Positions 21,683 through 44,324 of a DNA stretch of 64,000 nucleotides are shown in pieces. Every line of letters begins with the position of its first letter. Position 1 is the first letter of the stretch. The stretch is from Mustelus asterias (taxonomy: Eukaryota). The stretch is from NCBI RefSeq assembly GCF_964213995.1, contig NW_027590159.1, positions 1 to 64,000 of the forward strand. Reading direction: 5' to 3'. The position numbers were made by a program, and so were the translations under genes. The notes under the pieces were generated by a model. That model was not told where the DNA came from and did no database searches. It saw nothing but the letters and a program-made list of their open reading frames with translations.

Positions 21683-22691
21683 TCTGGCAGCCACCACGCC
21701 CGCATGGGTGGGCCGAGAAGGCCCTGCCACCGGCGACGCTGGTGATGTCGCCATGGTATCAGGGGAAGTGCTACACCCACCCCGAGACTGCCCAGATGCA
21801 CGGCAGGGCGTATATGTGGAGGGAAAAATAAGGGAGGGTGGGGTAGGTGGGTAGGGGTGTAGGTGTTCTCTCCCCGGAGTGAGAGGGAGAGAGGAGGTCG
21901 GAGCAGTGGGAGGGAGATGAGGCACAAGGCCGGTGCCCCAGTCAGGAGGGAAAAAGGGGAGGGTGCACCAATCTTGGGGATAGCAGCAGTGGGTAGGGGA
22001 ATTAGGAAAAGGTCTTCACCCCCCCCACTGCAGATGGAGAAGAGACAGTCCAAACGCCTTCACCCCCCCCCCCCCTTCTCCTCCAGTTACTCTCTTCCTC
22101 CCTCCCCCCGGGGAGAGCGCACCCTCCAGAGGCCGGATGGCAGGCAAGCAGGCAGTCCAGACGGCAGGCAGCCCAGACGGCAGGCAGGCAGGCAGTCCAG
22201 ACGGCAGGCAGGCAGGTAGGTAAGCAGGCCAGACGGCAGGCAGGCAGGTAAGCAGGCCAGACGGCAGGCAGGCAGGTAAGCAGGCCAGACGGCAGGCAGG
22301 CAGTAAGCAGGCCAGACGGCAGGCAGGCAGGTAAGCAGGCCAGACGGCAGGCAGGCAGGTAAGCAGGCCAGACGGCAGGCAGGCAGGTAAGCAGGCCAGA
22401 CGGCAGGCAGGCAGGTAAGCAGGCCAGACGGCAGGCAGGCAGGTAAGCAGGCCAGACGGCAGGCAGGCAGGTAAGCAGGCCAGACGGCAGGCAGGCAGGC
22501 AACAGGCAGGCCGGGCAAGGCAGGCAGCAGCTCACCTCCCTCCTTCCTCCCCGCAGGGAGCCAAGAACAAGCAAACAAAACAAACAAAACAAGCAAACAA
22601 AACAAAACAAACAGAACCGGGCGTCTTCTTAAACAAACCCACCCCGGAAACAAAGTGCAGGCGCTGCCCCAGAGGAGGCACGTTTCAGGCC
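21683..22691 (-). mobile_element. Tx1-clade non-LTR retrotransposon copy A: 5' UTR plus first ~24 codons of ORF1 (3'-truncated)
   Basis: Clearly homologous to 28792-30123 (MATSPASPVAGPSRPT start, 28-bp minisatellite, CGTTTCAGGCC 5' end). Confidence 0.9.
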
Positions 22692-22845
22692 GTCTGAAGC
22701 TCAATCTTCATTCAGAGACCTCTTTTTAGGTCAAACCAAGTAAATAAACTCAAATTAAATCAGGACAAAGTAAAAGGGGCAGCTCCCCAAAAAGGAGGGG
22801 AAACAGCCCGAACAGAAATCAAAATGCAAAGGAAACTTAAAAACA

Positions 22846-25800
22846 TCAAATTAAAATGTGATTATTAGGGTCAATAATGCACCCCAACCCCTGCGGTGCC
22901 CAGTGGGCGCGGAAAGCGTCAACCTCGCCCGTGGACACCGCATGCTCCCTCTCCAGGGACACCTGGCCGCGAACGTAGCCGCGGTAGAGGGGAAGACAGT
23001 CAGGATGGACGGCCCCCTCGATCGCCCGCTGCCTGGACCGGTAAATGGCGCGTTTCGCCAGGCCCAGGAGCAGGTTCATGAGGAGGTCGCCATCCCGACC
23101 CTCCCCTCTCCGCACCGGGTGTCCGTAGATCAGGAGCGTGGGACTGAAGTGTAAACAAAACATCAATAAAAGGTTCTTCAGGAAAACATAAAGGGAGTGC
23201 AGCCTAAGACACTCAACATAGACATGGTCCACGGACTCCACAAGGCCACAGAAAGGGCAGTCTTCGGAGCCCGTGAACCAGTGAATCCTACGGTTGTGCG
23301 GAACTGCTGCATGCATCACCCTCCACCCCAGGTCCCCGACGTAATTGGGGGAGATCCCTCCGTAGAGGGACCTCCAGCGGGGACCTCCGCCGCCCGGCGG
23401 CAACAAGGCCCGCCAAGGTGTATCCGGGCGACAGGCGAGGAGGCGGTAGTGGAGGGTGTGCAGCAGCAGCCCGCACAGGAAATGCCTCCGTGCGGTAGAA
23501 AAAGGCACGGAGGGCATTTCCGCGAGGCGGCTCAGGCTGTAGGGCACCTCACCCAGGGGAGGGGGCTGAGGCTTTGGGCCAATGTGGAATTCCGCCCGAA
23601 CAGGGGAACGCTCGGGCGGGATCCCACCGCACGCCTGCGCCGTCTCAAGTTTGCGTGCAGTTTCGGGGCCGAGCACGACCGTCCTAAGGTCTAGGATGGC
23701 TTTGGCCGCGCGCCGGACGGACGTCCCCGCACGCTCAGCCAGCACGCGGGGACTCATCCAGCCCGCTCCTCCGCCATCGAGCATGTCCCCGATTCTGGTC
23801 ACCCCGGCGTCCACAGCCCCCCTCTCCGCCAGCCACCTGAAGTTATACGGCTGGAGGAGCGGATTCCTGAGCAGCGGCTCTCGCACGAGAGCCGCTACTC
23901 CTGACGGGGGAGAGCTGCGTCGCGAGGCGACCTTGTTCCAGACAGTGAGGAGGTCCTGGTAAAAGACGGGCAACTCCTGCAGGGCGGTCGAAGCACGCCC
24001 CAGTTCGATATGCAGGAGCTGCACGTCATAATTGAGGCCGTGCCACTGGCGGAAGAAATACGTCGCCATGGCACACCACTGTGGAGGGGGCTCAACGTAA
24101 AGGTACCTCTGCAGGGCCTGGAGGCGGAAGGTCGCTATCTGAGTGCGGAGGCACACCAGACCTTGTCCGCCCTCCTCAAGCGGGAGATACAGGACCGCAG
24201 CAGGGACCCAGTGCAGTCGATTGCCCCAGAAGAACCGCACGAGGGTTCTCTGGATATCGGTGACAAAGCCAGGGGGAGGGGTCAAAGGGACCAGCCGGTA
24301 CCACAGCATGGAGGCGACCAGCTGGTTTATGACGCGAGCTCGCGCCCCGTAGGACAGCACTCGGAGCAGTCCTGTCCAGCGACCCAGGCGGGCGGAGACT
24401 TTGGCCTCCAGCTCCCGCCAGTTCGCCGGCCAGGATTCCTCGGCTGGGCAGAGATGGGCCCCCAAGTAGAGGAGGTCGGTCCTGCTCCAGGTGAAAGGCC
24501 TGAGCTCCTCCGGGAGGGGGTCCGTCTCCCAAGGACCGACAAGGAGTCCGGAGCACTTGGCCCAGTTGATCCTGGCGGAGGACGCGGCGGAGTACACCGC
24601 CTGGCATTCTCGCATCCTCCGCAGGTCAGCCGGGTCCGTGAACATGAGGAGCACGTCGTCGGCGTAAGCTGACAGGACCACCCCTACGTCCGGTCCGCGC
24701 AGGACCAAACCTGACAACCTCCTCCGCAAGAGGCGCAGGAATGGCTCCACGCATACGGAATACAGTTGGCCGGACAAGGGGCAGCCCTGCCGTACTCCTC
24801 TCCCGAAGCGAAGGGGCGCCGTCAGGGACCCGTTAACCTTAATCAGACACTCTGCGGCAGAGTACAGTCATCGGATCCGGGCGACAAAATGCGTCCCGAA
24901 CCCGAATGCCCGCAGAGTCCCGAGTAAATACTCGTGCTCCACCCTGTCGAACGCCTTCTCCTGATCTATTGACAAGAAGGCGCCCGACAGACCAGCCCTC
25001 TGGGTGTGATGGATTAGGTCCCGGACCAGGTGGAGATTGTCATGTATGCAACGGCCCGGGACCGTGTAGGACTGGTCAGGGTGGATCAAGTGGTCCAGCA
25101 CGGATCCAAGGCGTGAAGCCATAGCCCTGGCAAAGATTTTATAATCCGTGCTGAGGAGGGAGACCGGGCGCCAGTTCTTGAGCAGGTGGAGATCCCCCTT
25201 CTTGGGCAGCAGGGCAATGACGGCCCTGCGCCACGAAAGGGGCATCTCCCCGGTAGCGACGCTCTCCCCCAGGACCCCCGCGTAGTCGCTCCCCAGGACG
25301 TCCCAGAACGCCCTGAAGAACTCTACTGTCAGCCCGTCCAGCCCAGGGGCCTTGCCCCGGCTGAGGCCATTTAGGGCGCCGGTCAGCTCGGCCATGGTGG
25401 TAGGGGCCTCGAGCCTGCCGACGCCCTCCGGGCCGACCTGCGGCAGGTCCTCCCACAGAAGTCTGCGGGCATCCTCGCTGGACGGATCCGGAGAGAAGAG
25501 CGAGGTGTAATACTCCCGGGCAATGGCCCGGATGCCCTCCGGATCCGAGACGGGGGAACCGTCGTCGGCCAGCAGCGTAAGGAGCTGCTGACGGTTAGCC
25601 CGCCCTCTTTCCAGCGAGTAGAAGAAGGGGGAGCCGCGGTCCAGGTCCACCTGGAACTGGAGCCGCGACCTCACGTACGCGCCGCGAGACCTGGCAAGCT
25701 GCAGGTCTCGCAGCGCGTCCTTCTTCTCCCTGTACTCCCAACGCAGGGCCGGGTCCGCGTCAGGCCGACTGAGACGTGCCTCCAGGTCGAGCACCTCCTT

Positions 25801-26739
25801 CTCCAACTCCTCGAGCCTGGATTTCCGCCTCTTTGTCGACCCCCTCGCGTACCCCTGACAGAAGGTACGGACGTGAGTCTTGCCCACATCCCACCAGAGC
25901 CTCAAGGAGGGGAAGCCTCCCCGCTTCCTTCTCCAGCCGGCCCAGAATCGACGGAACGAGTCCAGGAAGCGCTCGTCCTCCAGCAGCGTGTTGTTAAAGT
26001 GCCAGTACGCGGACCCCCGCCGGATGCGAGACGGCGCAAAGTCCGCCCACACCAGGCTGTGGTCCGTGCTCGACACCGGCCGCATGGAGACCGAGGACAC
26101 GCCGGACACGTGCGCCTTCGAAATGTAAAGGCGGTCGAGCCTGGACGCTCCGACTCCAGGCCTCACGAAAGTGAAGGCGCTGGAGCCAGGATGGAGATGT
26201 CTCCAGACGTCCACCAAGTCGTGGGACCCGATCAGGTCCCGCAACTTCACCACCGCCGGAGTGCGCAGCCAGGGGCCGGTGCGGTCCCGTGCCTCGAGGA
26301 TGCAGTTGAAATCTCCCCCGAGGATAATGCATTCGCCCCCCGCGATGGTGTCGATGTGAGCGGACACTTTCTCGTAGAAAGTCGTTTGCTGCGGTCCAGC
26401 GGTCGGGGCGTAGACATTCAGCAAGTGAATGACCACGCCCCCCTCACGGACCGTCAAGTGCAGCAACCGGCCTGGCACCGGCTCCTTGACCCCCAAGATC
26501 TCCGGCTTATAATGCGGGGCCAACAAGATAGCCACCCCGCAAGAAGCGAGCGTGAGGTGGCTCATGTAGACCCCCCCTCGCCACTCCAGGAGCCATTGGG
26601 CTTCGTCTCCCGGAACGGTGTGGGTTTCCTGCAGGAAACACACCGCATACTTCCCGTCACGGAGGACCGAGAAGTTCTGGAACCTGCGGTGTGGCCCACT
26701 GCTGCCGTTGATGTTGAGGCTGGCTATGGTCACCTTCAT
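22846..26739 (-). pseudogene. Tx1 ORF2 (APE endonuclease, reverse transcriptase, C-terminal CCHC) with one in-frame TGA at 24868-24870
   Basis: SLNING, FLQETH, GGDFN, SRLDRLY, TDH (APE); KNWRPVSLLSTDYK, IDQEKAFD, SAYADDV (RT); CPFC...H...C. ORFs 26739-24868 and 24777-22846 are in the same frame. Confidence 0.95.
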
Positions 26740-26767
26740 GTCAGCAGCTTTGTGCCACCGTCACCAC

Positions 26768-28863
26768 TTAACTAGGTGTGTGGGGGGGCGCTGGCGCAAT
26801 TCTCACCAGTCCACCCCCCACCTTTTCGAGCCTGTGGAGGAACCGCAGTACCCAGCGCCGCTCTATTTTCTCCAGGCCCGCGGAGGCATGCGAGCATGCC
26901 TTCACGGACCGGACGAGCTGCGCCAGGTCCGGCCAGCGGCCGAGGGCTAGCCGGATTATGTCGGAGCGACCGGAATGGCTACGGATAAAGACCCCGAGGT
27001 CCTTGGAGGGGATGAGGGCCGACTCGGTGGGGGGCACGAGGGAGTCCCCCGCCTCGCTCTGGGCAGACTCTGAAAGTGTCCCCGTGCCCTCCACCGAGCC
27101 GCTGACCTCCTCAGGGCGGTCGCCCCTCGACTCCGAGTCCCCCGCCGCAGGACGTACGGCGGGCGGCACGGAGCCACCAACTAGCCCTAGCCCCTCCCCG
27201 ATCCCACCCCCAGGATCGGTGGAGGAGGGGTTCCCCCCGGGCTCACCTTTCCTGGATTGCGGGCCCCCGTGCGACGGCGGCCCAGCCCCCCCCCCCGCCC
27301 CAGACGCTTGGACACCCCCCAGGTCCGGTGTATCCTTCGGACTGAGGTTGGGGATGTCCAGCGTCCAAGGTCGGGACGGAGAGGACGAGTGGATCGTCTC
27401 TTCGCCGCCGCCGCACGAGGACATGAACATTGGAGTGTCGCCCCAGTCCCCCGACAGACTGAAGAAGAACTCCGGGTTGTAACCGGCCGGGTGGAACGGA
27501 ACCGTGGGGGCCCCGCTGCCACCCGGCCCCGGAGACTCCTCGCCGGGGGACTGAGGCAACACATGCTTCGATTTGCAGGGTGCCTTGCCCCCTTTTTTCA
27601 GGGGACAAGGCACAAGGACAGGTGGGGGCACGGCAGGAGATGACTCACAAGGGGGGAGGGGCACGCAGACCTCGAACTCTACGGTGCCCGAGGGGCCCCG
27701 CCTCTTTTTGTTAACCTGCCCTCGGGCAGGCGAGGCCCCTCGCCCTCCGCCCCTCTTCGCCTTGCCGCGCCCCCCCTGCTCTCCCGTCACTTCCCCCCGA
27801 GGTGGCGGCGTCGCCAGTTTTGCCGGCTCGGGGTCGCTTACCCCCCCCATGCTCGGGCCCATGATCCCGGGCGCCGGACCCAGCACTAGGCCCCGGAGAG
27901 CCCACGGGCCCGGCAGATGGTGGTGGTGGGGGGGGGGCGCAGGTGGAGACTGAGGCGGTCCCCGAGCCGGCTGCCGGGGTGGTTGGGGTGTCTTTACTGC
28001 GGGCCGGGGTTCCGGTACCCCCCTTCTTTTTCGTGGGTCCCTTCTGGGCCCTTTGGTCGCGCGGGGGCTCCGCTCCCCCCCCCGCCGGCAGCTGAGGTGG
28101 CAGCTGCTGCCGGCGTGGCCTCCCCTCGCGGGGGGGCAGATGGTACTCGCTTGGGGGGAGAGGGGGCTGCGGTGCCAGCTGCGGCCGCCTTGGGTTGGTG
28201 GTCGGCGGCCTTGGAGACGGGGCAGTTTTTCCTCACGTGCCCCGCCTCCTTACAGGCATGGCACCGCACACCGTCCGCGGACCAAAAGACCCGGTACGTG
28301 GTCCCCTCGTGGGGGACATTGAAACCTCCCTCCAGTTCCTCCTCCCGGGCCAGGCGGACAAAAACCTGGCGCCGGAAGGAGTATATGTGGCGGAGGGAGG
28401 GGTCCCGAAGGCCGAGCGGGATCGGCTGCACCCCGGACCTGACCTCCCCCAGTAGATGGAGGTGGGGGAGGAGGAGCTCACTCGGTAGGAAGGGCGGGAC
28501 GTTCGATATTACTATCTTGTGGGCGGTGGCCTCCAATGGGTCCACCGCCAGGAACGTCCCGCCCACCGTGAGCCCCTTTTCCAGGGCGAGGCGAACCGCC
28601 CGCTCGGCCTTCAGGAAGAATACGGCCCGGCCGTACATCTTTGAGGCCGCGACAATGGCTGAGGGGCCGACAACCCCAGCCATTGCCTTAACGCAGGCCT
28701 CGATAGACATGTCGGGGTGGGCGTAGCACTTCACCCCGAGCTGCCGTGTGATTAAAGAGAATGGTGGCAGGGCCTTGGGAGCGGCGGGGGCTCTGGCAGC
28801 CGCCACGCCCGCATAGGTGGGCCGAGAAGGCCCTGCCACCGGCGACGCTGGTGATGTCGCCAT
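26768..28863 (-). pseudogene. Tx1 ORF1 (RNA-binding, CCHC zinc knuckle), interrupted near 27994
   Basis: MATSPASP...IVAASKMYGRAVFFL...ISNVPPFLPSELL...SFRRQVF...CHACKEAGHVRKNC; continues as a Pro/Gly-rich ORF at 27886-26768. Confidence 0.85.
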
Positions 28864-29264
28864 GGTATCAGGGGAAGTGCTACACCCACCCCGAGACTGC
28901 CCAGATGCACGGCAGGGCGTATGTGGGATGGGGAAGATAAGGCAGGGTGGGGTAGGCGGGGAAGGGTGTAGGTGCTCTCTCCCCGGAGCGAGAGAGGGAG
29001 AGAGGAGGTTGGAGGCGCAGGAGGGAGATGAGGCACAAGGCCGGTGCCCCAGTCAGGAGGGAAAAGGGGAGGGGGTGCCGGTCCCGGGGGCAGCAGTAGT
29101 GGGTAGGGGAAATAGGAAAGGTCTTCACCCCCCCCCACTGCAGATGGAAAAGAGACAGTCCAAACGCCTTCGCCCCCCCCCCTCTCCTCCAGTCACTCCC
29201 TGTCCTCTCTTCCTCCCCCCCCCCCCCCCGGGGAGAGCGCACCCTCCAGAGGCCGGATGGCAGG

Positions 29265-29870
29265 GAAGCAGGCAGTCAGGCAGTCCAGACGGCAGGCAGG
29301 CTAGACGGCAAGCAGGCAGGCAGGCAGTCCAGACGGCAGGCAGGCAGGTAGGTAAGCAGGCCAGACGGCAGGCAGGCAGGTAAGCAGGCCAGACGGCAGG
29401 CAGGCAGGTAAGCAGGCCAGACGGCAGGCAGGCAGGTAAGCAGGCCAGACGGCAGGCAGGCAGGTAAGCAGGCCAGACGGCAGGCAGGCAGGTAAGCAGG
29501 CCAGACGGCAGGCAGGCAGGTAAGCAGGCCAGACGGCAGGCAGGCAGGTAAGCAGGCCAGACGGCAGGCAGGCAGGTAAGCAGGCCAGACGGCAGGCAGG
29601 CAGGTAAGCAGGCCAGACGGCAGGCAGGCAGGTAAGCAGGCCAGACGGCAGGCAGGCAGGTAAGCAGGCCAGACGGCAGGCAGGCAGGTAAGCAGGCCAG
29701 ACGGCAGGCAGGCAGGTAAGCAGGCCAGACGGCAGGCAGGCAGGTAAGCAGGCCAGACGGCAGGCAGGCAGGTAAGCAGGCCAGACGGCAGGTAAGCAGG
29801 CCAGACGGCAGGCAGGCAGGTAAGCAGGCCAGACGGCAGGCAGGCAACAGGCAGGCCGGGCAAGGCAGGC
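29265..29870. repeat. 28-bp minisatellite in Tx1 5' UTR (TAAGCAGGCCAGACGGCAGGCAGGCAGG)n; shorter copy at 22135-22530
   Basis: Direct inspection of near-perfect tandem units. Confidence 0.95.
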
Positions 29871-30149
29871 AGCAGCTCACCTCTCTCCTTCCTCCCCGCA
29901 GGGAGCGAAAAACAAACAAACCCAACAAAACAAAAACAAAAACCGGGCGTCTCCGTGAGCAAAAACGAAAAAAAATAAAGGTACTCACAAAAAGAAAAGA
30001 AAACAAACCCAAAATTTCCGCCCGGCTCCGACCCGGGGCCCCCCGCTACTCGGGCGAACGTGAACTCACCCCACCCCCGAAACAAAGTGCAGGCGCTGCC
30101 TCGGAGGAGGCACGTTTCAGGCCGTCTGAAGCTCAATTTTCATTCAGAG

Positions 30150-30640
30150 AGAGAGCAGCAGCAGCTTCGCTGGGCAGGAATGAGCAGCTGAACAAGCTCA
30201 TTGTGCAACTTCCGCATTCAGACAATGTGGGAGCTCTGATTGGCTGGAGGATTAAAGAACTTCCGGTCCTCCAGAGTTTCCATTGGTCAAACCCCGCTGA
30301 CAGACAATGAGGGGCGGAGCCCCACGTGGGGGTGGGCGGGACTTTGTCCTCCAGCCGCGCTGAGCTGTTGTCCAATGGGAAAGGCAGGAAGAGCCGGACA
30401 GACAATGGTCAGTGCGCCGGCTTTGTCCCGGCCCCGCCCCACAATGGCACATGCGCATTCCCCCCAAAATCTGCACATGCGCACCTTTGATTCACGGCCC
30501 CTTACTAGCTCTGGCCAACAGGAAGAGTTGGAGGACCGGAAGGATTCTGGTCCCCAGCCATTGAAAGCGCGGGCCTTGTGTGAGTGAAGATGGAGTTTCA
30601 GAGAGAGTCAAACTTCTTCCTGTCGGCCACATCTGTGAGT
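30150..30640. promoter_or_regulatory. Bidirectional (head-to-head) ZNF-type CpG promoter with two divergent non-coding exon-1 arms
   Basis: Several CCAAT/ATTGG boxes, GC boxes, GCACATGCGCA (NRF1-like) twice, and inverted CTTCCGGTCCTCCA / TGGAGGACCGGAAG ETS-like modules. The right arm 30565-30640 matches the minus-strand ZNF exon 1 at 55448-55530. Confidence 0.8.
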
Positions 30641-33600
30641 GGGAAAGATTGGATTGTCCAGCCAGTCCACCATATTGGCCGTTCGCTTTGCGTGTTGGCC
30701 AGTATAGTGTGCTCCAGGCAGGGGGCGGGCAGAGGATAAGGAGTTCAAGGCGGGCTTAATGCGCGCCTTGCGGTGAGCTTTTGGAAATGTGGCCGCTGGG
30801 AGGAACGCCTTGGTCGGCGTGAAGTTTCTGTTTCAAGTGCTTGGGTTCGTGACTTGTGCAAGAACTTTTTGTTTCGGCTGGGGCTTGTTGAATGCTGCTC
30901 TCGCTGGGATTCCTGTGCCTTGAAAGGCGTGGCCCAGGTAGATGCAATCTCGGAAGACCCAAGCCAGGGAGGAGCCATTTGGGAACTATGGTTTCGGAAG
31001 GTTCAGCCGCGGAAGGTGTGACCGCAGACGGTGCAGCCCCAGTGGGTGTGATTTTGGAAGTTCTGGCCCGGAGTGGTGGACTTTGGAGGACTGTAGTTGA
31101 GCGTTGTCGACTTCGGACGGTGGAATGTTGATGGGCGAAGCTCTGGAAGGCGATGCCTCCGAAATGTTTCACAATTGTATGGTTGTTCATGGATTGTTTG
31201 TTATTGTAATATGTGGTTTTCCTGTTATGGTAGTTGGTGGTTTGTTCCGGCCCCCGTCTATTTTCTTGCGTTATTTGTGGCCTGGGGGGCATCCCCCCCT
31301 GGATGGAGTCACCCCCGGGGGGTGTGACATCCACTTGGGGAAAGTTCTGGGTGGTGAAGCCCCGGACATAGTAACACCAGAGGGATTTTTATTCTCCGGG
31401 AGAAAAATTGGGAAGGCAGGCCCGAACTGAGTACCCTGGAGAGACTCTCCCACCGCCCCGGCTGAAATTCCGGAAGGCAGTCCGGATTGAGTAGGCGGGG
31501 TGGTTTCCCCATTTCCCCCCTCCGGCTGAACATCCGTAAGGTGTAACCCCCCGGATATGAGTACCACTGGAGGGTTGCATCCCCCGGCAGGTGGACAAAC
31601 CCAGGGGACGGTGCCCTTATGCTTCAGTGTTTATTTTTTTGTTGTGTACAGTTGTAGTGTTGTGTTAATGTTTGTAGATTTGTAGATTATGATTTGTAAA
31701 TGGAGGTGTATTTTGAGGGCAATGCCCTGGAAAACTGTAATTGACGATGAACTCTTCCGAAATGGAAGGTAGTAATTGATAAATGGATGGTGTTAGCCAT
31801 CGGTAATGTATTTTTCATGAATTGTTTGTTATTGTAATATGTGGTTTTCCTGTTATGGTAGTTGGTGGTTTGTTCCGGCCCCCGTCTATTTTCTTGCATT
31901 ATTTGTGGCCTGGGGGGCATCCCCCCCTGGATAAAGTCACCCCCGGGGGGTGTGACATCCACTTGGGGAAAGTTCTGGGTGGTGAAGCCCCGGACATAGT
32001 AACACCAGAGGGATTTTTATTCTCCGGGAGAAAAATTGGGAAGGCAGGCCCGAACTGAGTACCCTGGAGAGACTCTCCCACCGCCCCGGCTGAAATTCCG
32101 GAAGGAATTCCGGATTGAGTAGGCGGGGTGGTTTCCCCCATTTCCCCCCTCTGGCTGAACATCCGTAAGGTGTAACCCCCGGATATGAGTACCACTGGAG
32201 GGTTGCATCCCCCGGCAGGTGGACAAACCCAGGGGACGGTGCCCTTATGCTTCAGTGTTTATTTTTTGTTGTGTACAGTTGTAGTGTTGTGTTAATGTTT
32301 GTAGATTTGTAGATTATGATTTGTAAATGGAGGTGTATTTTGAGGGCAATGCCCTGGAAAACTGTAATTGACGATGAACCCTTCCGAAATGGAAGGTAGT
32401 AACTGATAAATGGATGGCATTAGCCATTGGTAATGTATTTTTTTTACATTTGTTCTTTGTGTATTTGTAATTGTTTTGTATTAACGTATTTGTAATAAAC
32501 AAAAAGAAATCCACATCTGTGAGTGGGAAAGATTGGATTGTCCAGCCAGTCCACCATATTGGCCGTTCGCTTTGCGTGTTGGCCAGTATGGTGTGCTCCA
32601 GGCAGGGGGCGGGCAGAGGATAAGGAGTTCAAGGCGGGCTTAATGCGCGCCTTGCGGTGAGCTTTTGGAAATGTGGCCGCTGGGAGGAACGCCTTGGTCG
32701 GCGTGAAGTTTCTGTTTCAAGTGCTTGGGTTCGTGACTTGTGCAAGAACTTTTTGTTTCGGCTGGGGCTTGTTGAATGCTGCTCTCGCTGGGATTCCTGT
32801 GCCTTGAAAGGCGTGGCCCGGGTGGATGCAGTCTCGGAGGGCCCAAGCCAGGGAGGAGCCATTTGGGAACTATGGTTTCGGAAGGTTCAGCCGCGGAAGG
32901 TGTGACCCCAGACGGTGCAGCCCCAGTGGGTGTGATTTTGGAAGTTCTGGCCCGGAGTGGTGGACTTTGGAGGACTGTAGTTGAGCGTTGTCGACTTCGG
33001 ACGGTGGAATGTTGATGGGCGAAGCTCTGGAAGGCGATGCCTCCGAAATGTTTCACAATTGTATGGTTGTTCATGGATTGTTTGTTATTGTAATATGTGG
33101 TTTTCCTGTTATGATAGTTGGTGGTTTGTTCCGGCCCCCGTCTATTTTCTTGCGTTATTTGTGGCCTGGGGGGCATCCCCCCCTGGATAAAGTCACCCTC
33201 GGGGGGTGTGACATCCACTTGGGGAAAGTTCTGGGTGGTGAAGCCCCGGACATAGTAACACCAGAGGGATTTTTATTCTCCGGGAGAAAAATTGGGAAGG
33301 CAGGCCCGAACTGAGTACCCTGGAGAGACTCTCCCACCGCCCCGGCTGAAATTCCGGAAGGGATTCCGGATTGAGTAGGTTCGGGGTGGTTTCCCCATTT
33401 CCCCCCTCCGACTGAACATCCGTAAGGTGTAACCCCCGGATATGAGTACCACTGGAGGGTTGCATCCCCCGGCAGGTGGACAAACCCAGGGGACGGTGCC
33501 CTTATGCTTCAGTGTTTATTTTTTGTTGTGTATAGTTGTAGTGTTGTGTTAATGTTTGTAGATTTGTAGATGATGATTTGTAAATGGAGGTGTATTTTGA

Positions 33601-36600
33601 GGGCAATGCCCTGGAAAACTGTAATTGATGATGAACCCTTCCGAAATGGAAGGTAGTAATTGATAAATGGATGGTGTTAGCCATCGGTAATGTATTTTTC
33701 AGATTTGTTCTTTGTTCATTTGTAATTGTTTTGTAATATCGTGTTTGTACTAACCAACGGAAAATCTTTGCATTGTTTGTGGCCTGGGGGGTATCCCCCC
33801 CCCCCCCCCCTTGGATAGAGTGACCCCCGGGGGGTGTGACATCCAGTTGGGGAAAGTGTCCGGGGCACCCAGAGGGGTAACACCGGGGGGGTTTTGTTCT
33901 CCGGGAGAAAAATTGGGAAGGCAGGCCGAATTGAGTATCCCGGAGAGCTTTTCTCACCGCCCCAGCCGAAAATCCGGAAGGCAGTCCGGATTGAGTAGGT
34001 TCGGGGTGGTTTTCCTGTCCCCCCGCCTCCAGTCGAACATCCGTCAGGTGGAACCCCCGGACCTGAGTACCTCTGGAGGGTTGCATCCCCCGGCAGGGGA
34101 AAAACCCAGGGGACGGTGCCCTTATGCTTCAGTGTTTATTTTTTGTTGTGTACAGTTGTAGTGTTGTGTTCATGTTTGTAGATTTGTAGATTATGATTTG
34201 TAAATGGAGGTGTATTTTGAGGGCAATGCCCTGGAAAATTGTAATTGACGATGAACCCTTCCGAAATGGAAGGTAGTAACTGATAAATGGATGGCGTTAG
34301 CCATTGGTAATGTATTTTTTTCACATTTGTTCTTTGTGTATTTGTAACTGTTTTGTATTAACGTATTTGTAATAAACAAAAAGAAACCAACATCTGTGAG
34401 TGGGAAAGATTGGATTGTCCAGCCAGTCCACCATATTGGCCGTTCGCTTTGCGTGTTGACCAGTATGGTGTGCTCCAGGCAGGGGGCGGGCAGAGGATAA
34501 GGAGTTCAAGGCGGGCTTAATGCGCGCCTTGCGGTGAGCTTTTGGAAATGTGGCCGCTGGGAGGAACGCCTTGGTCGGCGTGAAGTTTTTGTTTCAAGTG
34601 CTTGGGTTCGTGACTTGTGCAAGAACTTTTTGTTTCGGCTGGGGCTTGTTGAATGCTGCTCTCGCTGGGATTCCTGTGCCTTGAAAGGCGTGGCCCAGGT
34701 AGATGCAATCTCGGAAGACCCAAGCCAGGGAGGAGCCATTTGGGAACTATGGTTTCGGAAGGTTCAGCCGCGGAAGGTGTGACCCCAGACGGTGCAGCCC
34801 CAGTGGGTGTGATTTTGGAAGATCTGGCCCGGAGTGGTGGACTTTGGAGGACTGTAGTTGAGCGTTGTCGACTTCGGACGGTGGAATGTTGATGGGCGAA
34901 GCTCTGGAAGGCGGTGCCTCCGAAATGTTTCACAATTGTATGGTTGTTCATGGATTGTTTGTTATTGTAATATGTGGTTTTCCTGTTATGATAGTTGGTG
35001 GTTTGTTCCGGCCCCCGTCTATTTTCTTGCGTTATTTGTGGCCTGGGGGGCATCCCCCCCTGGATAAAGTCACCCCCGGGGGGTGTGACATCCACTTGGG
35101 GAAAGTTCTGGGTGGTGAAGCCCCGGACATAGTAACACCAGAGGGATTTTTATTCTCCGGGAGAAAAATTGGGAAGGCAGGCCCGAACTGAGTACCCTGG
35201 AGAGACTCTCCCACCGCCCCGGCTGAAATTCCGGAAGGGATTCCGGATTGAGTAGGTTCGGGGTGGTTTCCCCCATTTCCCCCCTCCGGCTGAACATCCG
35301 TAAGGTGTAACCCCCGGATATGAGTACCACTGGAGGGTTGCATCCCCCGGCAGGTGGACAAACCCAGGGGACGGTGCCCTTATGCTTCAGTGTTTATTTT
35401 TTGTTGTGTACAGTTGTAGTGTTGTGTTAATGTTTGTAGATTTGTAGATTATGATTTGTAAATGGAGGTGTATTTTGAGGGCAATGCCCTGGAAAACTGT
35501 AATTGATGATGAACCCTTCCGAAATGGAAGGTAGTAATTGATAAATGGATGGTGTTAGCCATTGGTAATGTATTTTTCAGATTTGTTCTTTGTTCATTTG
35601 TAATTGTTTTGTAATATCGTGTTTGTACTAACCAACGGAAAATCTTTGCATTGTTTGTGGCCTGGGGGGTATCCCCCTCCCCCCCCCCCTGGATAGAGTG
35701 ACCCCCGGGGGGTGTGACATCCAGTTGGGGAAAGTGTCCGGGGCACCCAGAGGGGTAACACCGGGGGGGTTTTGTTCTCCGGGAGAAAAATTGGGAAGGC
35801 AGGCCGAATTGAGTATCCCGGAGAGCTTTTCCCACCGCCCCAGCCGAAAATCCGGAAGGCAGTCCGGATTGAGTAGGTTCGGGGTGGTTTTCCTGTCCCC
35901 CCGCCTCCAGTCGAACATCCGTCAGGTGGAACCCCCGGACCTGAGTACCTCTGGAGGGTTGCATCCCCCGGCAGGGGAAAAACCCAGGGGACGGTGCCCT
36001 TATGCTTCAGTGTTTATTTTTTGTTGTGTACAGTTGTAGTGTTGTGTTAATGTTTGTAGATTTGTAGATTATGATTTGTAAATGGAGGTGTATTTTGAGG
36101 GCAATGCCCTGGAAAACTGTAATTGATGATGAACCCTTCCGAAATGGAAGGTAGTAACTGATAAATGGATGGCGTTAGCCACTGGTAATGTATTTTTTTC
36201 ACATTTGTTCTTTGTGTATTTGTAATTGTTTTGTATTAACGTATTTGTAATAAACAAAAAGAAACCAACATCTGTGAGTGGGAAAGATTGGATTGTCCAG
36301 CCAGTCCACCATATTGGCCGTTCGCTTTGCGTGTTGGCCAGTATAGTGTGCTCCAGGCAGGGGGCGGGCAGAGGATAAGGAGTTCAAGGCGGGCTTAATG
36401 CGCGCCTTGCGGTGAGCTTTTGGAAATGTGGCCGCTGGGAGGAACGCCTTGGTCGGCGTGAAGTTTCTGTTTCAAGTGCTTGGGTTCGTGACTTGTGCAA
36501 GAACTTTTTGTTTCGGCTGGGGCTTGTTGAATGCTGCTCTCGCTGGGATTCCTGTGCCTCGAAAGGCGTGGCCCAGGTAGATGCAATCTCGGAAGACCCA

Positions 36601-39600
36601 AGCCAATAAGGAGCCATTTGGGAACTATGGTTTCGGAAGGTTCAGCCGCGGAAGGTGTGACCGCAGACGGTGCAGCCCCAGTGGGTGTGATTTTGGAAGT
36701 TCTGGCCCGGAGTGGTGGACTTTGGAGGACTGTAGTTGAGCGTTGTCGACTTCGGACGGTGGAATGTTGATGGGCGAAGCTCTGGAAGGCGATGCCTCCG
36801 AAATGTTTCACAATTGTATGGTTGTTCATGGATTGTTTGTTATTGTAATATGTGGTTTTCCTGTTATGATAGTTGGTGGTTTGTTCCGGCCCCCGTCTAT
36901 TTTCTTGCGGTATTTGTGGCCTGGGGGGCATCCCCCCCTGGATAAAGTCACCCCCGGGGGGTGTGACATCCACTTGGGGAAAGTTCTGGGTGGTGAAGCC
37001 CCGGACATAGTAACACCAGAGGGATTTTTATTCTCCGGGAGAAAAATTGGGAAGGCAGGCCCGAATTGAGTACCCTGGAGAGACTCTCCCACCGCCCCGG
37101 CTGAAATTCCGGAAGGGATTCCGGATTGAGTAGGCGGGGTGGTTTCCCCCATTTCCCCCCTCCGGCTGAACATCCGTAAGGTGTAACCCCCGGATATGAG
37201 TACCACTGGAGGGTTGCATCCCCCGGCAGGTGGACAAACCCAGGGGACGGTGCCCTTATGCTTCAGTGTTTATTTTTTGTTGTGTACAGTTGTAGTGTTG
37301 TGTTAATGTTTGTAGATTTGTAGATTATGATTTGTAAATGGAGGTGTATTTTGAGGGCAATGCCCTGGAAAACTGTAATTGATGATGAACCCTTCCGAAA
37401 TGGAAGGTAGTAATTGATAAATGGATGGTGTTAGCCATCGGTAATGTATTTTTCAGATTTGTTCTTTGTTCATTTGTAATTGTTTTGTAATATCGTGTTT
37501 GTACTAACCAACGGAAAATCTTTGCATTGTTTGTGGCCTGGGGGGTATCCCCCCCCCCCCCTGGATAGAGTGACCCCCGGGGGGTGTGACATCCAGTTGG
37601 GGAAAGTGTCCGGGGCACCCAGAGGGGTAACACCGGGGGGGTTTTGTTCTCCGGGAGAAAAATTGGGAAGGCAGGCCGAATTGAGTATCCCGGAGAGCTT
37701 TTCCCACCGCCCCAGCCGAAAATCCGGAAGGCAGTCCGGATTGAGTAGGTTCGGGGTGGTTTTCCTGTCCCCCCGCCTCCAGTCGAACATCCGTCAGGTG
37801 GAACCCCCGGACCTGAGTACCTCTGGAGGGTTGCATCCCCCGGCAGGGGAAAAACCCAGGGGACGGTGCCCTTATGCTTCAGTGTTTATTTTTTTGTTGT
37901 GTACAGTTGTAGTGTTGTGTTAATGTTTGTAGATTTGTAGATTATGATTTGTAAATGGAGGTGTATTTTGAGGGCAATGCCCTGGAAAACTGTAATTGAC
38001 GATGAACCCTTCCGAAATGGAAGGTAGTAATTGATAAATGGATGGTGTTAGCCATCGGTAATGTATTTTTCATGGATTGTTTGTTATTGTAATATGTGGT
38101 TATCCTGTTATGGTAGTTGGTGGTTTGTTCCGGCCCCCGTCTATTTTCTTGCGTTATTTGTGGCCTGGGGGGCATCCCCCCCTGGATAAAGTCACCCCCG
38201 GGGGGTGTGACATCCACTTGGGGAAAGTTCTGGGTGGTGAAGCCCCGGACATAGTAACACCAGAGGGATTTTTATTCTCCGGGAGAAAAATTGGGAAGGC
38301 AGGCCCGAACTGAGTACCCTGGAGAGACTCTCCCACCGCCCCGGCTGAAATTCCGGAAGGGATTCCGGATTGAGTAGGCGGGGTGGTTTCCCCCATTTCC
38401 CCCCTCCGGCTGAACATCCGTAAGGTGTAACCCCCGGATATGAGTAGCACTGGAGGGTTGCATCCCCCGGCAGGTGGACAAACCCAGGGGACGGTGCCCT
38501 TATGCTTCAGTGTTTATTTTTTGTTGTGTACAGTTGTAGTGTTGTGTTAATGCTTGTAGATTTGTAGATTATGATTTGTAAATGGAGGTGTATTTTGAGG
38601 GCAATGCCCTGGAAAACTGTAATTGACGATGAACCCTTCCGAAATGGAAGGTAGTAACTGATAAATGGATGGCGTTAGCCATTGGTAATGTATTTTTTCA
38701 CATTTGTTCTTTGTGTATTTGTAATTGTTTTGTATTAACGTATTTGTAATAAACAAAAAGAAACCAACATCTGTGAGTGGGAAAGATTGGATTGTCCAGC
38801 CAGTCCACCATATTGGCCGTTCGCTTTGCGTGTTGGCCAGTATAGTGTGCTCCAGGCAGGGGGCGGGCAGAGGATAAGGAGTTCAAGGCGGGCTTAATGC
38901 GCGCCTTGCGGTGAGCTTTTGGAAATGTGGCCGCTGGGAGGAACGCCTTGGTCGGCGTGAAGTTTCTGTTTCAAGTGCTTGGGTTCGTGACTTGTGCAAG
39001 AACTTTTTGTTTCGGCTGGGGCTTGTTGAATGCTGCTCTCGCTGGGATTCCTGTGCCTTGAAAGGCGTGGCCCAGGTAGATGCAATCTCGGAAGACCCAA
39101 GCCAGGGAGGAGCCATTTGGGAACTATGGTTTCGGAAGGTTCAGCCGCGGAAGGTGTGACCCCAGACGGTGCAGCCCCAGTGGGTGTGATTTTGGAAGTT
39201 CTGGCCCGGAGTGGTGAACTTTGGAGGACTGTAGTTGAGCGTTGTCGACTTCGGACGGTGGAATGTTGATGGGCGAAGCTCTGGAAGGCGATGCCTCCGA
39301 AATGTTTCACAATTGTATGGTTGTTCATGGATTGTTTGTTATTGTAATATGTGGTTTTCCTGTTATGATAGTTGGTGGTTTGTTCCGGCCCCCGTCTATT
39401 TTCTTGCGTTATTTGTGGCCTGGGGGGCATCCCCCCCTGGATAAAGTCACCCCCGGGGGGTGTGACATCCACTTGGGGAAAGTTCTGGGTGGTGAAGCCC
39501 CGGACATAGTAACACCAGAGGGATTTTTATTCTCCGGGAGAAAAATTGGGAAGGCAGGCCCGAACTGAGTACCCTGGAGAGACTCTCCCACCGCCCCGGC

Positions 39601-41897
39601 TGAAATTCCGGAAGGGATTCCGGATTGAGTAGGTTCGGGGTGGTTTCCCCCATTTCCCCCCTCCGGCTGAACATCCGTAAGGTGTAACCCCCGGATATGA
39701 GTACCACTGGAGGGTTGCATCCCCCGGCAGGTGGACAAACCCAGGGGACGGTGCCCTTATGCTTCAGTGTTTATTTTTTGTTGTGTACAGTTGTAGTGTT
39801 GTGTTAATGTTTGTAGATTTGTAGATTATGATTTGTAAATGGAGGTGTATTTTGAGGGCAATGCCCTGGAAAACTGTAATTGATGATGAACCCTTCCGAA
39901 ATGGAAGGTAGTAATTGATAAATGGATGGTGTTAGCCATTGGTAATGTATTTTTCAGATTTGTTCTTTGTTCATTTGTAATTGTTTTGTAATATCGTGTT
40001 TGTACTAACCAACGGAAAATCTTTGCATTGTTTGTGGCCTGGGGGGTATCCCCCTCCCCCCCCCCCTGGATAGAGTGACCCCCGGGGGGTGTGACATCCA
40101 GTTGGGGAAAGTGTCCGGGGCACCCAGAGGGGTAACACCGGGGGGGTTTTGTTCTCCGGGAGAAAAATTGGGAAGGCAGGCCGAATTGAGTATCCCGGAG
40201 AGCTTTTCCCACCGCCCCAGCCGAAAATCCGGAAGGCAGTCCGGATTGAGTAGGTTCGGGGTGGTTTTCCTGTCCCCCCGCCTCCAGTCGAACATCCGTC
40301 AGGTGGAACCCCCGGACCTGAGTACCTCTGGAGGGTTGCATCCCCCGGCAGGGGAAAAACCCAGGGGACGGTGCCCTTATGCTTCAGTGTTTATTTTTTG
40401 TTGTGTACAGTTGTAGTGTTGTGTTAATGTTTGTAGATTTGTAGATTATGATTTGTAAATGGAGGTGTATTTTGAGGGCAATGCCCTGGAAAACTGTAAT
40501 TGATGATGAACCCTTCCGAAATGGAAGGTAGTAACTGATAAATGGATGGCGTTAGCCACTGGTAATGTATTTTTTTCACATTTGTTCTTTGTGTATTTGT
40601 AATTGTTTTGTATTAACGTATTTGTAATAAACAAAAAGAAACCAACATCTGTGAGTGGGAAAGATTGGATTGTCCAGCCAGTCCACCATATTGGCCGTTC
40701 GCTTTGCGTGTTGGCCAGTATAGTGTGCTCCAGGCAGGGGGCGGGCAGAGGATAAGGAGTTCAAGGCGGGCTTAATGCGCGCCTTGCGGTGAGCTTTTGG
40801 AAATGTGGCCGCTGGGAGGAACGCCTTGGTCGGCGTGAAGTTTCTGTTTCAAGTGCTTGGGTTCGTGACTTGTGCAAGAACTTTTTGTTTCGGCTGGGGC
40901 TTGTTGAATGCTGCTCTCGCTGGGATTCCTGTGCCTCGAAAGGCGTGGCCCAGGTAGATGCAATCTCGGAAGACCCAAGCCAATAAGGAGCCATTTGGGA
41001 ACTATGGTTTCGGAAGGTTCAGCCGCGGAAGGTGTGACCGCAGACGGTGCAGCCCCAGTGGGTGTGATTTTGGAAGTTCTGGCCCGGAGTGGTGGACTTT
41101 GGAGGACTGTAGTTGAGCGTTGTCGACTTCGGACGGTGGAATGTTGATGGGCGAAGCTCTGGAAGGCGATGCCTCCGAAATGTTTCACAATTGTATGGTT
41201 GTTCATGGATTGTTTGTTATTGTAATATGTGGTTTTCTTGTTATGATAGTTGGTGGTTTGTTCCGGCCCCCGTCTATTTTCTTGCGGTATTTGTGGCCTG
41301 GGGGGCATCCCCCCCTGGATAAAGTCACCCCCGGGGGGTGTGACATCCACTTGGGGAAAGTTCTGGGTGGTGAAGCCCCGGACATAGTAACACCAGAGGG
41401 ATTTTTATTCTCCGGGAGAAAAATTGGGAAGGCAGGCCCGAACTGAGTACCCTGGAGAGACTCTCCCACCGCCCCGGCTGAAATTCCGGAAGGGATTCCG
41501 GATTGAGTAGGCGGGGTGGTTTCCCCATTTCCCCCCTCCGGCTGAACATCCGTAAGGTGTAACCCCCGGATATGAGTACCACTGGAGGGTTGCATCCCCC
41601 GGCAGGTGGACAAACCCAGGGGACGGTGCCCTTATGCTTCAGTGTTTATTTTTTGTTGTGTACAGTTGTAGTGTTGTGTTAATGTTTGTAGATTTGTAGA
41701 TTATGATTTGTAAATGGAGGTGTATTTTGAGGGCAACATGCACTGGAAAACTGTAATTGACGATGAACCCTTCCGAAATGGAAGGTAGTAACTGATAAAT
41801 GGATGGCGTTAGCCATTGGTAATGTATTTTTTCACATTTGTTCTTTGTGTATTTGTAATTGTTTTGTATTAACGTATTTGTAATAAACAAAAAGAAA
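30641..41897 (+). repeat. Tandem array of six non-coding retroelement-like units (1.24-2.5 kb), starting at 30641, 32525, 34402, 36280, 38779 and 40657
   Basis: Each unit has a ~550-bp head, 1-3 copies of a ~620-bp module and a tail ending AATAAACAAAAAGAAA, and is preceded by C(C/A)ACATCTGTGAGT. No recognisable protein ORF. Confidence 0.9.
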
Positions 41898-42011: not shown

Positions 42012-42082
42012 GCATTGGTGGTTCAGTGGTAGAATTCTTGCCTGTCATGCGGGAGGCCTGGGTTCGATTCCTGGGCAATGCA
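42012..42082 (+). tRNA. tRNA-Gly(GCC)-derived gene/pseudogene with anticodon changed to GTC
   Basis: GCATTGGTGGTTCAGTGGTAGAATTCTTGCCT-GTC-ATGCGGGAGGCCTGGGTTCGATTCCTGGGCAATGCA. The body is the vertebrate tRNA-Gly-GCC with CpG decay; A/B boxes are intact and a TTTT follows at about 42093. Confidence 0.85.
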
Positions 42083-42893
42083 AAGCCGCTTCTTTTACCT
42101 TAAAAGAGGCCCACATCTGTGAGTAAAACACTTTCTTTTCTCCCCCTTTCCATTTCTTTTCTCATTCTGGGGGAAATTGGGAACTTGCAGCAACTGAAGG
42201 GAAAGGAAGTGAATCCAGTCTGTACATTCCACACATTGTTAGCCCAGTCAGATAGACAAATATCTGTCTGGCAGCCTGCATGGAGATTTTCAGCTCTCTG
42301 TGTCCAGGAGAGGAAGCAGTGAGCACGGATCTGTTAATCAGCCTCAATCAGCACCTTCAGGAGAATTGGGAGGGTGAATATTAGATACAGCAGAGTGAGA
42401 ATGGAGGGAGAGTGTGTGGGATGGAGATTTACAGCTTTTCGGGAATGAGAGAGGAAAGAATGTTCCATAGAAACTAGAATTGTCTGTTCTGAATTTCTAT
42501 CCTGTGCTGACATTGATGAATTTTTCAAACTCGTTTACAGGATATGAGAAGGTGAGGATTGACAGACAGAGGATTGAAACAAACATCACATCAGCATCTG
42601 ACACCCTCACTCAATTCATCGGACCTGAATATTATCGGCCTTTGAATCCTGGAGAAATGTTTCTCTGTTCTGTCTGCGTCAACAGGCCTTTAATATCAAT
42701 GTGACTGGAAAAGCACCAAGACACAGATACACCCGAGTGGGAGTGTTCCAGTGCACTGAGTGTGGAAAGAGCTTTAACCAGTTACACAGCCTGAAAATAC
42801 ATCGCAGCATTCACAGCGGGAGAGACTGTACCCGTGTTCTGTGTGAGATTTAACTGATTGTTTAACCTGGAGAGTCACAAGGACACCTGCACC

Positions 42894-44324
42894 ATGGAGA
42901 AACCGTGGAAATGTGGGGACTGTGGGAAGAGATACAGAGCCCCCTGTAAACTGGAAATTCATCGACGCAATCACACCGAGGAGAGGCCATTCATCTGCTC
43001 TGTGTGTGGGCAGAGATTCACTCGGTTATCTCATCTGCAGCGACATCAGCAGGTTCACACTGGAGAAAGAGCGTTCATCTGCTTTGAGTGTGGGAACGGA
43101 TTCGCTCATTTACCCGATCTGCAGAGACACCAGCGCGTTCACACTGGAGAGAGACCATTCACCTGCTTGGTGTGTGGGAAAGGATTTATGCAGTTATCCA
43201 ATCTGTCAAAACACAAAGTCACTCACAGCAATGAGAGACCCTTTAAATGCTCTGACTGTGGGCGTGATTTCAAAAGCTCTCGGGAACTGATGATTCACCA
43301 GCGCGTTCATACTGGGGAGAGACCGTTCAGCTGCTTGGTGTGTGGGAAAGGATTGACGCAGTTATCTAACCTGTCAAAACACAAAGTCACTCACAGCCAG
43401 GAGAGACCCTTTAAATGCTCTGACTGTGGGAGTGGTTTCAAAAGCTCTCGGGAACTGATTATCCACCAGCGCATTCACACTGGGGAGAGACCATTCAGCT
43501 GCTCTCACTGCGCAAAGAAATTTAGAGCATCATCCCACCTGCGGATACACCAGCGAGTTCACACTGGGGAGAGACCGTTCACCTGCTCTGTGTGTGGGAA
43601 GGGATTCACTCAGTCATCCAGCCTGCAGAACCACAATCTCACTCACACCAATGAGAGACCGTTTAAATGTTCTGACTGTGGGCGTGATTTCAAAAGCTCT
43701 CGGGAACTGATGATTCACCAGCGCGTTCATACTGGGGAGAGACCGTTCAGCTGCTTGGTGTGTGGGAAAGGATTGACGCAGTTATCTAACCTGTCAAAAC
43801 ACAAAGTCACTCACAGCCAGGAGAGACCCTTTAAATGCTCTGACTGTGGGAGTGGTTTCAAAAGCTCTCGGGAACTGATTATCCACCAGCGCATTCACAC
43901 TGGGGAGAGACCATTCAGCTGCTCTCACTGCGCAAAGAAATTTAGAGCATCATCCCACCTGCGGATACACCAGCGAGTTCACACTGGGGAGAGACCGTTC
44001 ACCTGCTCTGTGTGTGGGAAGGGATTCACTCAGTCATCCAGCCTGCAGAACCACAATCTCACTCACACCAATGAGAGACCGTTTAAATGTTCTGACTGTG
44101 GGCGTGATTTCAAAAGCTCTCGGGAACTGATGATCCACCAGCGCACTCACACTGGGGAGAGACCGTTCAGCTGCTCTCACTGCTCAAAGAGATTTAGAAC
44201 ATCATCCCACCTGCAGATACACCAGCGAGTTCACACTGGGGAGAGACTGTTCACTTGCTGTGTGTGTGGGAAGGGATTCACTCAGTCATCCAGCCTGCGG
44301 ACACACCAGCAAGTTCACAAGTGA
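42894..44324 (+). CDS. KRAB-less C2H2 zinc-finger protein, 17 fingers (gastrula zinc finger XlCGF-like)
   Basis: MEKPWKCGDCGK... with HTGERPF linkers, intact ORF. Upstream non-coding exon donor CATCT|gtgagt at 42118/42119 and acceptor tttacag|G at 42540. Confidence 0.9.
   Translation: MEKPWKCGDCGKRYRAPCKLEIHRRNHTEERPFICSVCGQRFTRLSHLQRHQQVHTGERAFICFECGNGFAHLPDLQRHQRVHTGERPFTCLVCGKGFMQLSNLSKHKVTHSNERPFKCSDCGRDFKSSRELMIHQRVHTGERPFSCLVCGKGLTQLSNLSKHKVTHSQERPFKCSDCGSGFKSSRELIIHQRIHTGERPFSCSHCAKKFRASSHLRIHQRVHTGERPFTCSVCGKGFTQSSSLQNHNLTHTNERPFKCSDCGRDFKSSRELMIHQRVHTGERPFSCLVCGKGLTQLSNLSKHKVTHSQERPFKCSDCGSGFKSSRELIIHQRIHTGERPFSCSHCAKKFRASSHLRIHQRVHTGERPFTCSVCGKGFTQSSSLQNHNLTHTNERPFKCSDCGRDFKSSRELMIHQRTHTGERPFSCSHCSKRFRTSSHLQIHQRVHTGERLFTCCVCGKGFTQSSSLRTHQQVHK

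Follow-up and report, generated by a model that had tools for sequence, protein, structure and literature searches.

What is a GC-rich module of RNA hairpins with recurring GAA/AGUA internal loops doing in twelve copies in a 64,000-nucleotide stretch of DNA from Mustelus asterias (contig NW_027590159.1, positions 1 to 64,000; hereafter the window)? A preliminary description of the sequence had guessed at a link to retroelements, and this link turned out to be stronger than guessed. Rather than being an RNA gene in its own right, the hairpin module forms the GC-rich internal domain of a non-coding retroposon of 1.2-2.5 kb, and this retroposon, which bears the marks of target-primed reverse transcription (TPRT), shares its insertion nucleotide with a long interspersed element (LINE) of the Tx1 type.

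The retroposon forms a tandem array at positions 30641-41897, with six units of 1241-2484 nt each. All units start with GGGAAAGATTGG, finish with AATAAACAAAAAGAAA and stand directly after a 15-bp sequence ending in CATCTGTGAGT. Genome-wide, there are 179 exact 5′ starts and, allowing at most one mismatch, 458 tail hairpins; the controls gave 0. Dispersed copies have a constant 3′ end and variable 5′ cut points, and among 17 such copies perfect target-site duplications (TSDs) of 11-16 bp flank eight and a near-perfect one flanks one, with none seen in the other eight. A fixed 3′ end, varied 5′ truncation and TSDs of 11-16 bp are marks of TPRT, and the element is very likely a non-autonomous TPRT retroposon. 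The unit has no long plus-strand open reading frame (ORF), and no same-strand reverse transcriptase (RT) matched directly upstream of the element in the loci scanned (1.5-kb flanks). Moreover, no autonomous element bearing the module was met in the 1.5-kb flanks, best-40 or first-30 loci sampled, a sample that does not establish its absence. Inside the units, Rfam gave no match to a tRNA, 5S or 7SL head, as in a classical short interspersed element (SINE) transcribed by RNA polymerase III (Pol III), and no small nuclear RNA (snRNA) match that would indicate a U1/U2-derived head. Three other origins were rejected. A long terminal repeat (LTR) or tyrosine-recombinase origin is ruled out by the 5′ truncations with TSDs of 11-16 bp; a protein-coding origin, for monomers that read PEGVT/PDRVT, fails because the reading frame changes from one unit to the next in both old and young copies; and the module is not the 5′ untranslated region (UTR) of the adjacent Tx1 element, which lies on the opposite strand and is missing from most arrays. 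No RNA run was among the sequencing runs listed as carrying the sequence. Four runs from other organisms contained nothing but short, nearly identical pieces at a depth of 2.5-4, possibly carry-over, and were not used.

Where does the element insert? At empty sites, a single copy of the 15-mer lies between exon-1-like and intron-like sequence, and the 15-mer contains a consensus splice donor. Judged from the sequence, the 15-bp site likely holds the exon 1 splice donor of C2H2 zinc-finger (ZNF) genes. A ZNF coding exon follows downstream on the same strand in the window array and in four of six other arrays fetched. Full-length starts have 50 distinct 5′ flanks, of which 48 terminate in the donor site; by type, the 50 comprise ZNF exon 1 (29), a previous unit (18) and an LTR-like leader (3). 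A tRNA-like sequence at 42012-42082 (plus strand; Rfam 46.7 bits) stands between the array and a second donor, and a similar junction is seen at another locus (L142).

The Tx1 LINE on the minus strand of the window has fish pol-like proteins as its best named relatives, with Q76IM5 presumably a Kibi/Koshi-type (Tx1) protein. Members of the young subfamily of the window Tx1 (99% alike) are mostly inserted at the TCTCTCTG stretch of the same ZNF exon 1. At the donor itself we found 89 Tx1 3′ ends, with the cut falling on the nucleotide that the element uses (control, 0), and 12 donor-site copies that were fetched are 88-96% identical to the window Tx1 over ORF2. Tx1 proteins probably move the element. 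This argument from a shared target is circumstantial, as it is for SINEU and Tx1-Mar (PMC4494074).

Several features of the Tx1 lineage stand on their own. Two preferred ZNF exon 1 sites, the TCTCTCTG stretch and the splice donor, recur across loci L081-L110 and L336-L377. Some insertions retain only ~14 nt of the 3′ end and still have a full 15-bp duplication, and one locus carries ~20 tandem 255-bp 3′ fragments. In the window, a BED-finger transposase fragment (20860-21690) abuts a second, partial Tx1 5′ copy (21690-22716). The Tx1 5′ UTR has a 28-bp tandem repeat, with 13 copies at 22168-22527 and 21 copies at 29259-29846.

The sequences next to the 3′ end suggest how targets might be chosen. 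In 16 of 17 young dispersed copies the next bases are CCA, TCC or CCC, resembling source flanks, and in an older subfamily TTGAC follows the 3′ end, resembling the flank of its own cluster. We infer from this likeness that priming at matching DNA relies on a few flank bases carried on the RNA. One copy within an array (L036:6678-6820) runs 3 nt into the target before its A19 tail, with ZNF exon-1 sequence coming next; this fits a polyadenylated transcript of RNA polymerase II (Pol II) starting in exon 1. This copy is also a trace of 5′ transduction.

A mechanism can be proposed along these lines. Pol II read-through from the ZNF exon 1 promoter would transcribe the element, and the transcript would be cleaved just after AATAAA. 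The 2-5 nt of 3′ flank on the RNA would then prime at matching DNA, setting target choice, and arrays may enlarge by repeat insertion together with unequal crossover. The folded domain could act as a cis-determinant for loading into ribonucleoprotein (RNP) or for RNA stability, kept by selection on source copies. Such a role in loading or stabilizing RNA would be the most economical function by analogy with the variable-number tandem repeat (VNTR) of LAVA, which affects mobilization of that element (PMC4432496). Taken as a whole, we lean slightly towards a donor-targeting non-coding retroposon that is transcribed from host promoters, copied by Tx1 and helped in RNA loading by its fold. The selection-maintained fold and the loop-E-like loops are the least certain part of this reading.

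Relatives of the element occur in other settings as well. A second array type (G000 C19:82.813-82.833 Mb, C13:31.835-31.843 Mb, C26:13.562-13.570 Mb and C16:67.880-67.884 Mb) has a unit led by ~230 nt of LTR-like sequence with CCAAT and TATA, and its insertion site is TCC(C/T)TGATT; the C19 array also carries tandem 168-nt 5′-truncated ends. Copies of a mid-age subfamily (L192, L198, L188 and L310) lie just upstream of a Myb/SANT ORF, which we take to be Harbinger-like, and their 5′ side holds the upstream sequence of this Myb/SANT element and another GTAAG donor-like site. In cluster contigs (L254, L262 and relatives) a sister lineage has a target of its own, TTGACTC(T/A)CA; its 3′ repeat blocks are longer and its hairpins have decayed. 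Finally, an old copy sits in a bidirectional ZNF promoter (L308:1190-1270 and 1300-1500), where local inverted duplications form long perfect hairpins.

What, then, is the hairpin core within the unit (Table 1)? All 12 cores of the preliminary description were located, each ~341 nt long, eight of variant A and four of variant B, with starts at 31276, 31904, 33160, 33778, 35037, 35656, 36915, 37532, 38159, 39414, 40033 and 41292. Identity is 97-100% among A cores, 98.5-100% among B cores and 81-84% between A and B. The threefold GAA/TGAGTA noted previously was recovered as three GAGTA per core, with opposed GAA/AGUA loops in the predicted hairpins, and the hairpin at 33966-33999 exists as described (z -5.2 when its lower stem is included). 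CCTGGG and CCCAGG flank every core, although the helix that they were thought to close is different in the predicted A fold, where CCCAGG pairs with the second CCTGG (31297) and not with that at 31281. Similarly, the reported GTCAC/GTGAC hairpin is present in variant A but only there, and in the predicted fold its bases go to a long-range helix.

Table 1. Positions of the array, its units, the predicted RNA elements and the neighbouring features in the window
Feature	Position	Strand	Remarks
Tx1-type LINE; ORF1 with zinc knuckle, APE-RT ORF2 frameshifted near 24867	22717..30150	-	Candidate mobilizer lineage
Inferred ZNF promoter and exon 1	30300..30634	+	Same sequence precedes empty donors elsewhere
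15-bp target site; predicted splice donor GTGAGT at 30635-30640	30626..30640	+	Repeated at 32510, 34387, 36265, 38764, 40642
Retroposon unit 1: 5′ region, modules A, A and 3′ end	30641..32509	+	
5′ region of unit: CCAAT/GC-box-like start, then decayed ~15-nt repeats	30641..31170	+	No long plus-strand ORF
Structured core, variant A	31276..31616	+	One of 12
P2, predicted long-range 11-bp helix, 5′ strand	31318..31328	+	Partner 31574-31584
Hairpin H1, fourth copy of the unit; AGTA 31370	31333..31383	+	Weak in A, rearranged in B
Hairpin H2; GAA 31402 facing AGTA 31430	31394..31441	+	
Hairpin H3; GAA 31464/AGTA 31490	31450..31503	+	Best local fold, z -4.4
Hairpin H4; GAA 31528/AGTA 31560	31518..31574	+	Loop-closing pair non-Watson-Crick
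Tail hairpin H5; GAAC/TAGTA loop	31746..31776	+	458 genomic matches at ≤1 mismatch
Retroposon unit 2: A, B	32525..34386	+	
Structured core, variant B	33778..34121	+	Further B cores at 35656, 37532, 40033
Retroposon unit 3: A, B	34402..36264	+	
Retroposon unit 4: A, B, A	36280..38763	+	
Retroposon unit 5: A, B	38779..40641	+	
Retroposon unit 6: A	40657..41897	+	Ends in AATAAA and a short A-rich fixed end
Short Tx1-like 3′ end, then another donor-site copy	42094..42124	+	
Host C2H2 zinc-finger coding exon	42541..44324	+	AG acceptor ends 42540; ORF 42858-44324

The recurrence of the loop has a simple origin. Older relatives, 65-89% identical, were found by searching with a decayed copy, and four AGUA-bearing hairpins within one old copy are 65-76% alike (z 5.9-8.5). 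On these similarities, the core consists of one ~60-nt self-complementary unit, duplicated in tandem, with half-units at both ends, where the AGTA of the family has changed to AGTC or AGTG in young copies. The ~60-nt unit is itself composed of ~15-nt CCGGA-centred monomers that recur in the 5′ region and in older 3′ blocks, and the decayed ~15-nt repeats of the 5′ region are homologous to older family members. The element has a central GC-rich tandem-repeat domain, with monomers of ~15-20 nt and units of ~60 nt. Hence the loop recurs because one unit was duplicated; it is inherited and not convergent, and the three loops per core are not three independent pieces of evidence. One old element (G000 C69:27,532,740-27,535,500; L312) contains >100 tandem AGTA-bearing monomers of 16-20 nt.

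Does the module fold, and do its loops recur, beyond what its composition predicts? In loop E (the S-turn), 5′-AGUA stands opposite 5′-GAA in an internal loop between stems (PMC4695836). The predicted GAA/AGUA loops match this loop E/sarcin-ricin sequence pattern between helices. With a descriptor drawn up after the motif had been seen (GAA opposite AGTA between two stems), we found five sites in module A plus tail and four in module B, relative to a mean of 0.13-0.14 and a maximum of 2 in 500 dinucleotide shuffles. Shuffling in 15-nt blocks gave a mean of 0.4 sites and reached the observed count in 0 of 300 trials, and the minus strand of the modules had no sites. A degenerate H5 pattern with other stems gave 5 matches versus 3 in the control. 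Among the local hairpins, H3 (z -4.4 and -5.2) and H2 of variant B (z -4.0) fold well, and H1, H4 and H2 of variant A fold weakly. H3 and the variant B form of H2 have the canonical pair that closes the G-A side; H4 and the variant A form of H2 do not. For the whole core, z is -1.9 in A (5 of 100 shuffles) and -2.5 in B (1 of 100), and -1.1 on the minus strand. The earlier expectation that the module folds better than shuffles of the same composition holds for H3 and H2 of variant B, and is borne out only modestly for the entire core; the motif count is far above the shuffles. An Rfam search at gathering and E-value thresholds, run on the units and on three older copies, gave nothing above the gathering score; no Rfam family matches the module, those of known self-cleaving ribozymes and internal ribosome entry sites (IRES) included.

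Whether the fold is under selection was evaluated with a 72-pair model, which was drawn on a mid-family copy and so favours that group, and scored on 26 diverse copies; it is 88.6% paired on these, versus 31-59% when slid. Before changes and covariation were counted, copies >98.5% alike, rows of <200 letters and one duplicate misaligned row were dropped, which kept 87 of 239 matches; the counts also excluded linker columns of poly-C and, for variant B, its rearranged H1 region. At the subfamily level, 17 of 144 stem columns changed compared with 35 of 142 unpaired ones (p 0.006), and transversions number 2 in stems and 12 in unpaired columns (p 0.011); of the motif columns, 3 of 32 changed (p 0.06). 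The oldest step (old to mid-old) gives 4 of 114 stem and 15 of 113 unpaired columns. Conservation across 29 older copies is 93% for AGTA columns and 85% for other non-CpG columns, the AGTA of H2 is kept in 26 of 26 aligned copies, and several young-subfamily changes create pairs beside loops. A comparison of shared and private variants that keep pairing (45/98 versus 14/75; 87 copies) was set aside, as transition bias confounds it. The surviving signal for structural selection, a modest one, is the deficit of change in stems and motifs, and the odds that the fold is under some selection are, in our estimate, a little better than even.

A number of results weigh against this reading of the element and its fold. 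None of the 12 Tx1 copies fetched at the donor has an intact ORF2, and similarity between the 3′ tails of the element and the window Tx1 is absent beyond the terminal AAAAAGA (score 39.5 versus 49±6 when shuffled). The core as a whole folds only weakly (z -0.2 to -2.5). Pairs changed on both sides, a measure robust to relatedness, number 14 versus 11.3±2.4 in shuffles (87 of 500), which is not significant, and RNAalifold on the 26 copies recovered the short H2 and H3 stems with different long-range pairing and a covariation term of -1.4. Only the cell counts, which relatedness inflates, exceed all shuffles (0 of 500 reach the observed value). The step from mid-old to mid has no stem constraint (7/131 versus 7/128), and from mid to young the wobble-keeping transitions, 9:3 in stems, are 19:4 in unpaired columns (p 0.67), an equal excess that indicates mutational bias. 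The two pairing-preserving changes cited in the preliminary description are both located in CCGG (CpG) sites, and one of them alters a single strand of the helix (G-U to A-U). Support for selection on structure is modest overall, with stems changing less than linkers between subfamilies. In addition, no more than 33 of 52 positions are paired in the sister lineage, which is missing one AGTA and still spread; copies with a weakened H5 stem were also mobile. Homogenization among internal repeats could also reduce stem change.

These results can be read in another way, in which the retroposon is the same and its hairpins are neutral. Quasi-palindromic CCGGA minisatellite monomers would have given a self-complementary ~60-nt unit, which was duplicated and homogenized, and the loops would have no function. 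We consider this possible but on the unlikely side. It fits the likeness of units within an old copy (65-76%, z 5.9-8.5), the AGTA monomer in plain direct arrays without a GAA partner (>100 copies at one locus), the robust covariation result, the CpG position of both cited changes and a sister lineage without the fold. On the other hand, two of three subfamily steps show less change in stems and motifs than in linkers, the complementary sequences of the lower stems differ from unit to unit, conservation of AGTA columns exceeds that of other non-CpG columns (93% versus 85%; 29 older copies), and young copies fold better than older ones. The unit-specific lower stems are also left unexplained if the repeats act as DNA, with CCGGAAG arrays (CCGGAAG being, we assume, an ETS-like motif) and the CCAAT/GC boxes of the 5′ region serving as an internal promoter or enhancer and the hairpins following from palindromic CCGG. 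CCGGAAG-like words do occur throughout the 5′ region, the core and the older 3′ blocks, and the loop letters AAG are conserved as much as stems. However, the element nearly always follows a host donor and takes host 5′ flanks, and so seems not to need its own promoter; a role as DNA is very improbable.

Alu captures the LINE ORF2 protein through SRP9/14 of the signal recognition particle (SRP), and a comparable route would be open to the element if the loop-E array mimicked 5S rRNA or the sarcin-ricin loop and bound TFIIIA-type zinc fingers or uL18/L5. The RNA would then dock on ribosomes or oocyte storage particles and capture the LINE ORF2 protein there. The opposed AGUA/GAA fits the loop E definition of PMC4695836, with 4-5 such loops per module, and the motif is the best-conserved column class; still, there is no likeness to 5S or other Rfam RNAs, H4 lacks the canonical closing pair, and duplication accounts for the recurrence, which makes mimicry improbable. 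A broader version is doubtful as well: a long-lived retroposon lineage would have built an array of sarcin-ricin-like loops, docking its RNA on zinc-finger or ribosomal proteins to steal the Tx1 RT in an Alu-like hijack, and by homing to the ZNF donor it could tune transposon-policing genes. Under that scenario, an element at the first donor of a ZNF gene would gain a promoter, stay spliced out and supply U1 sites and poly(A) signals. The tandem units with precise ends would also suit an unclassified self-cleaving ribozyme in the core, freeing unit-length RNA from host pre-mRNA. We give this almost no weight: no ribozyme family in Rfam matches, the core lies at least 600 nt from the 5′ end of the unit and ~270 nt from its 3′ end, so that cleavage there would not give the observed unit, and the 3′ end is explained by AATAAA and the poly(A)-tailed copy.

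The window has further features outside the array. Immunoglobulin heavy-chain constant exons (C1-set; 6117-9787, plus strand) with a secretory-tail-like end lie beside the ZNF cluster. The C1-set exons, together with C2H2 arrays and a stingray protein match (65% identical), indicate a cartilaginous fish, likely a shark. A 15-bp C-rich minisatellite of ~30 copies is present at 60381-60844.

Why does this matter? A non-coding retroposon and a Tx1 LINE share one insertion nucleotide in the predicted splice donor of a large zinc-finger gene family, and the ZNF donor would be a safe harbour that also provides a Pol II promoter. Subfamilies from old to young, with and without the fold, offer a natural series for asking whether RNA structure or 3′-flank read-through sets Tx1 trans-mobilization and target choice, a question of relevance to the engineering of site-specific retrotransposons. 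Should the loop-E array bind a host RNP, evolution would have arrived independently, for a second time, at what Alu achieves with SRP; if not, the finding is a useful warning that duplicated palindromic units can mimic conserved multi-motif RNA.

The element appears to represent an undescribed family with an undescribed target class. In the literature, covered without Repbase and most subscription papers, no description was found of the element family or of a LINE targeting ZNF donors. In its way of working the element is like SINEU and SVA/LAVA and a member of neither, and its structured domain is real but unproven. Both the crocodilian SINEU elements mobilized by Tx1-Mar (PMC4494074) and the element here are non-coding and target-preferring, with a partner inferred from a target shared with Tx1 families; both form tandem copies sandwiching the TSD, lack an internal Pol III promoter and have host-derived 5′ additions. 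In contrast to SINEU, the element has no U1/U2 head, is much longer (1.2-2.5 kb), carries a repeated hairpin domain and targets the splice donor of protein genes, while its other subfamilies target LTR and Myb/SANT-transposon sites. With SVA/LAVA (PMC4432496) it shares non-autonomy, trans-mobilization, captured 5′ flanks and subfamily-specific central GC-rich tandem-repeat arrays, but it is site-preferring, usually lacks a poly(A) tail and has Tx1 rather than L1 as its likely partner. SVA/LAVA are hominoid-specific, with Alu-like 5′ and SINE-R/L1-Alu 3′ domains; the element is unrelated to them in sequence as far as tested, and membership is not claimed. Relative to loop E as defined in PMC4695836, the three to five copies in the element come from one duplicated unit and some lack the canonical closing pair. 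Finally, the window LINE resembles the Tx1-clade LINEs Kibi, Koshi and Keno (PMC4494074) in its APE-RT, target preference and tandem 5′-truncated arrays, and differs from them in targeting two sites of ZNF exon 1, the TCTCTCTG stretch and the donor.

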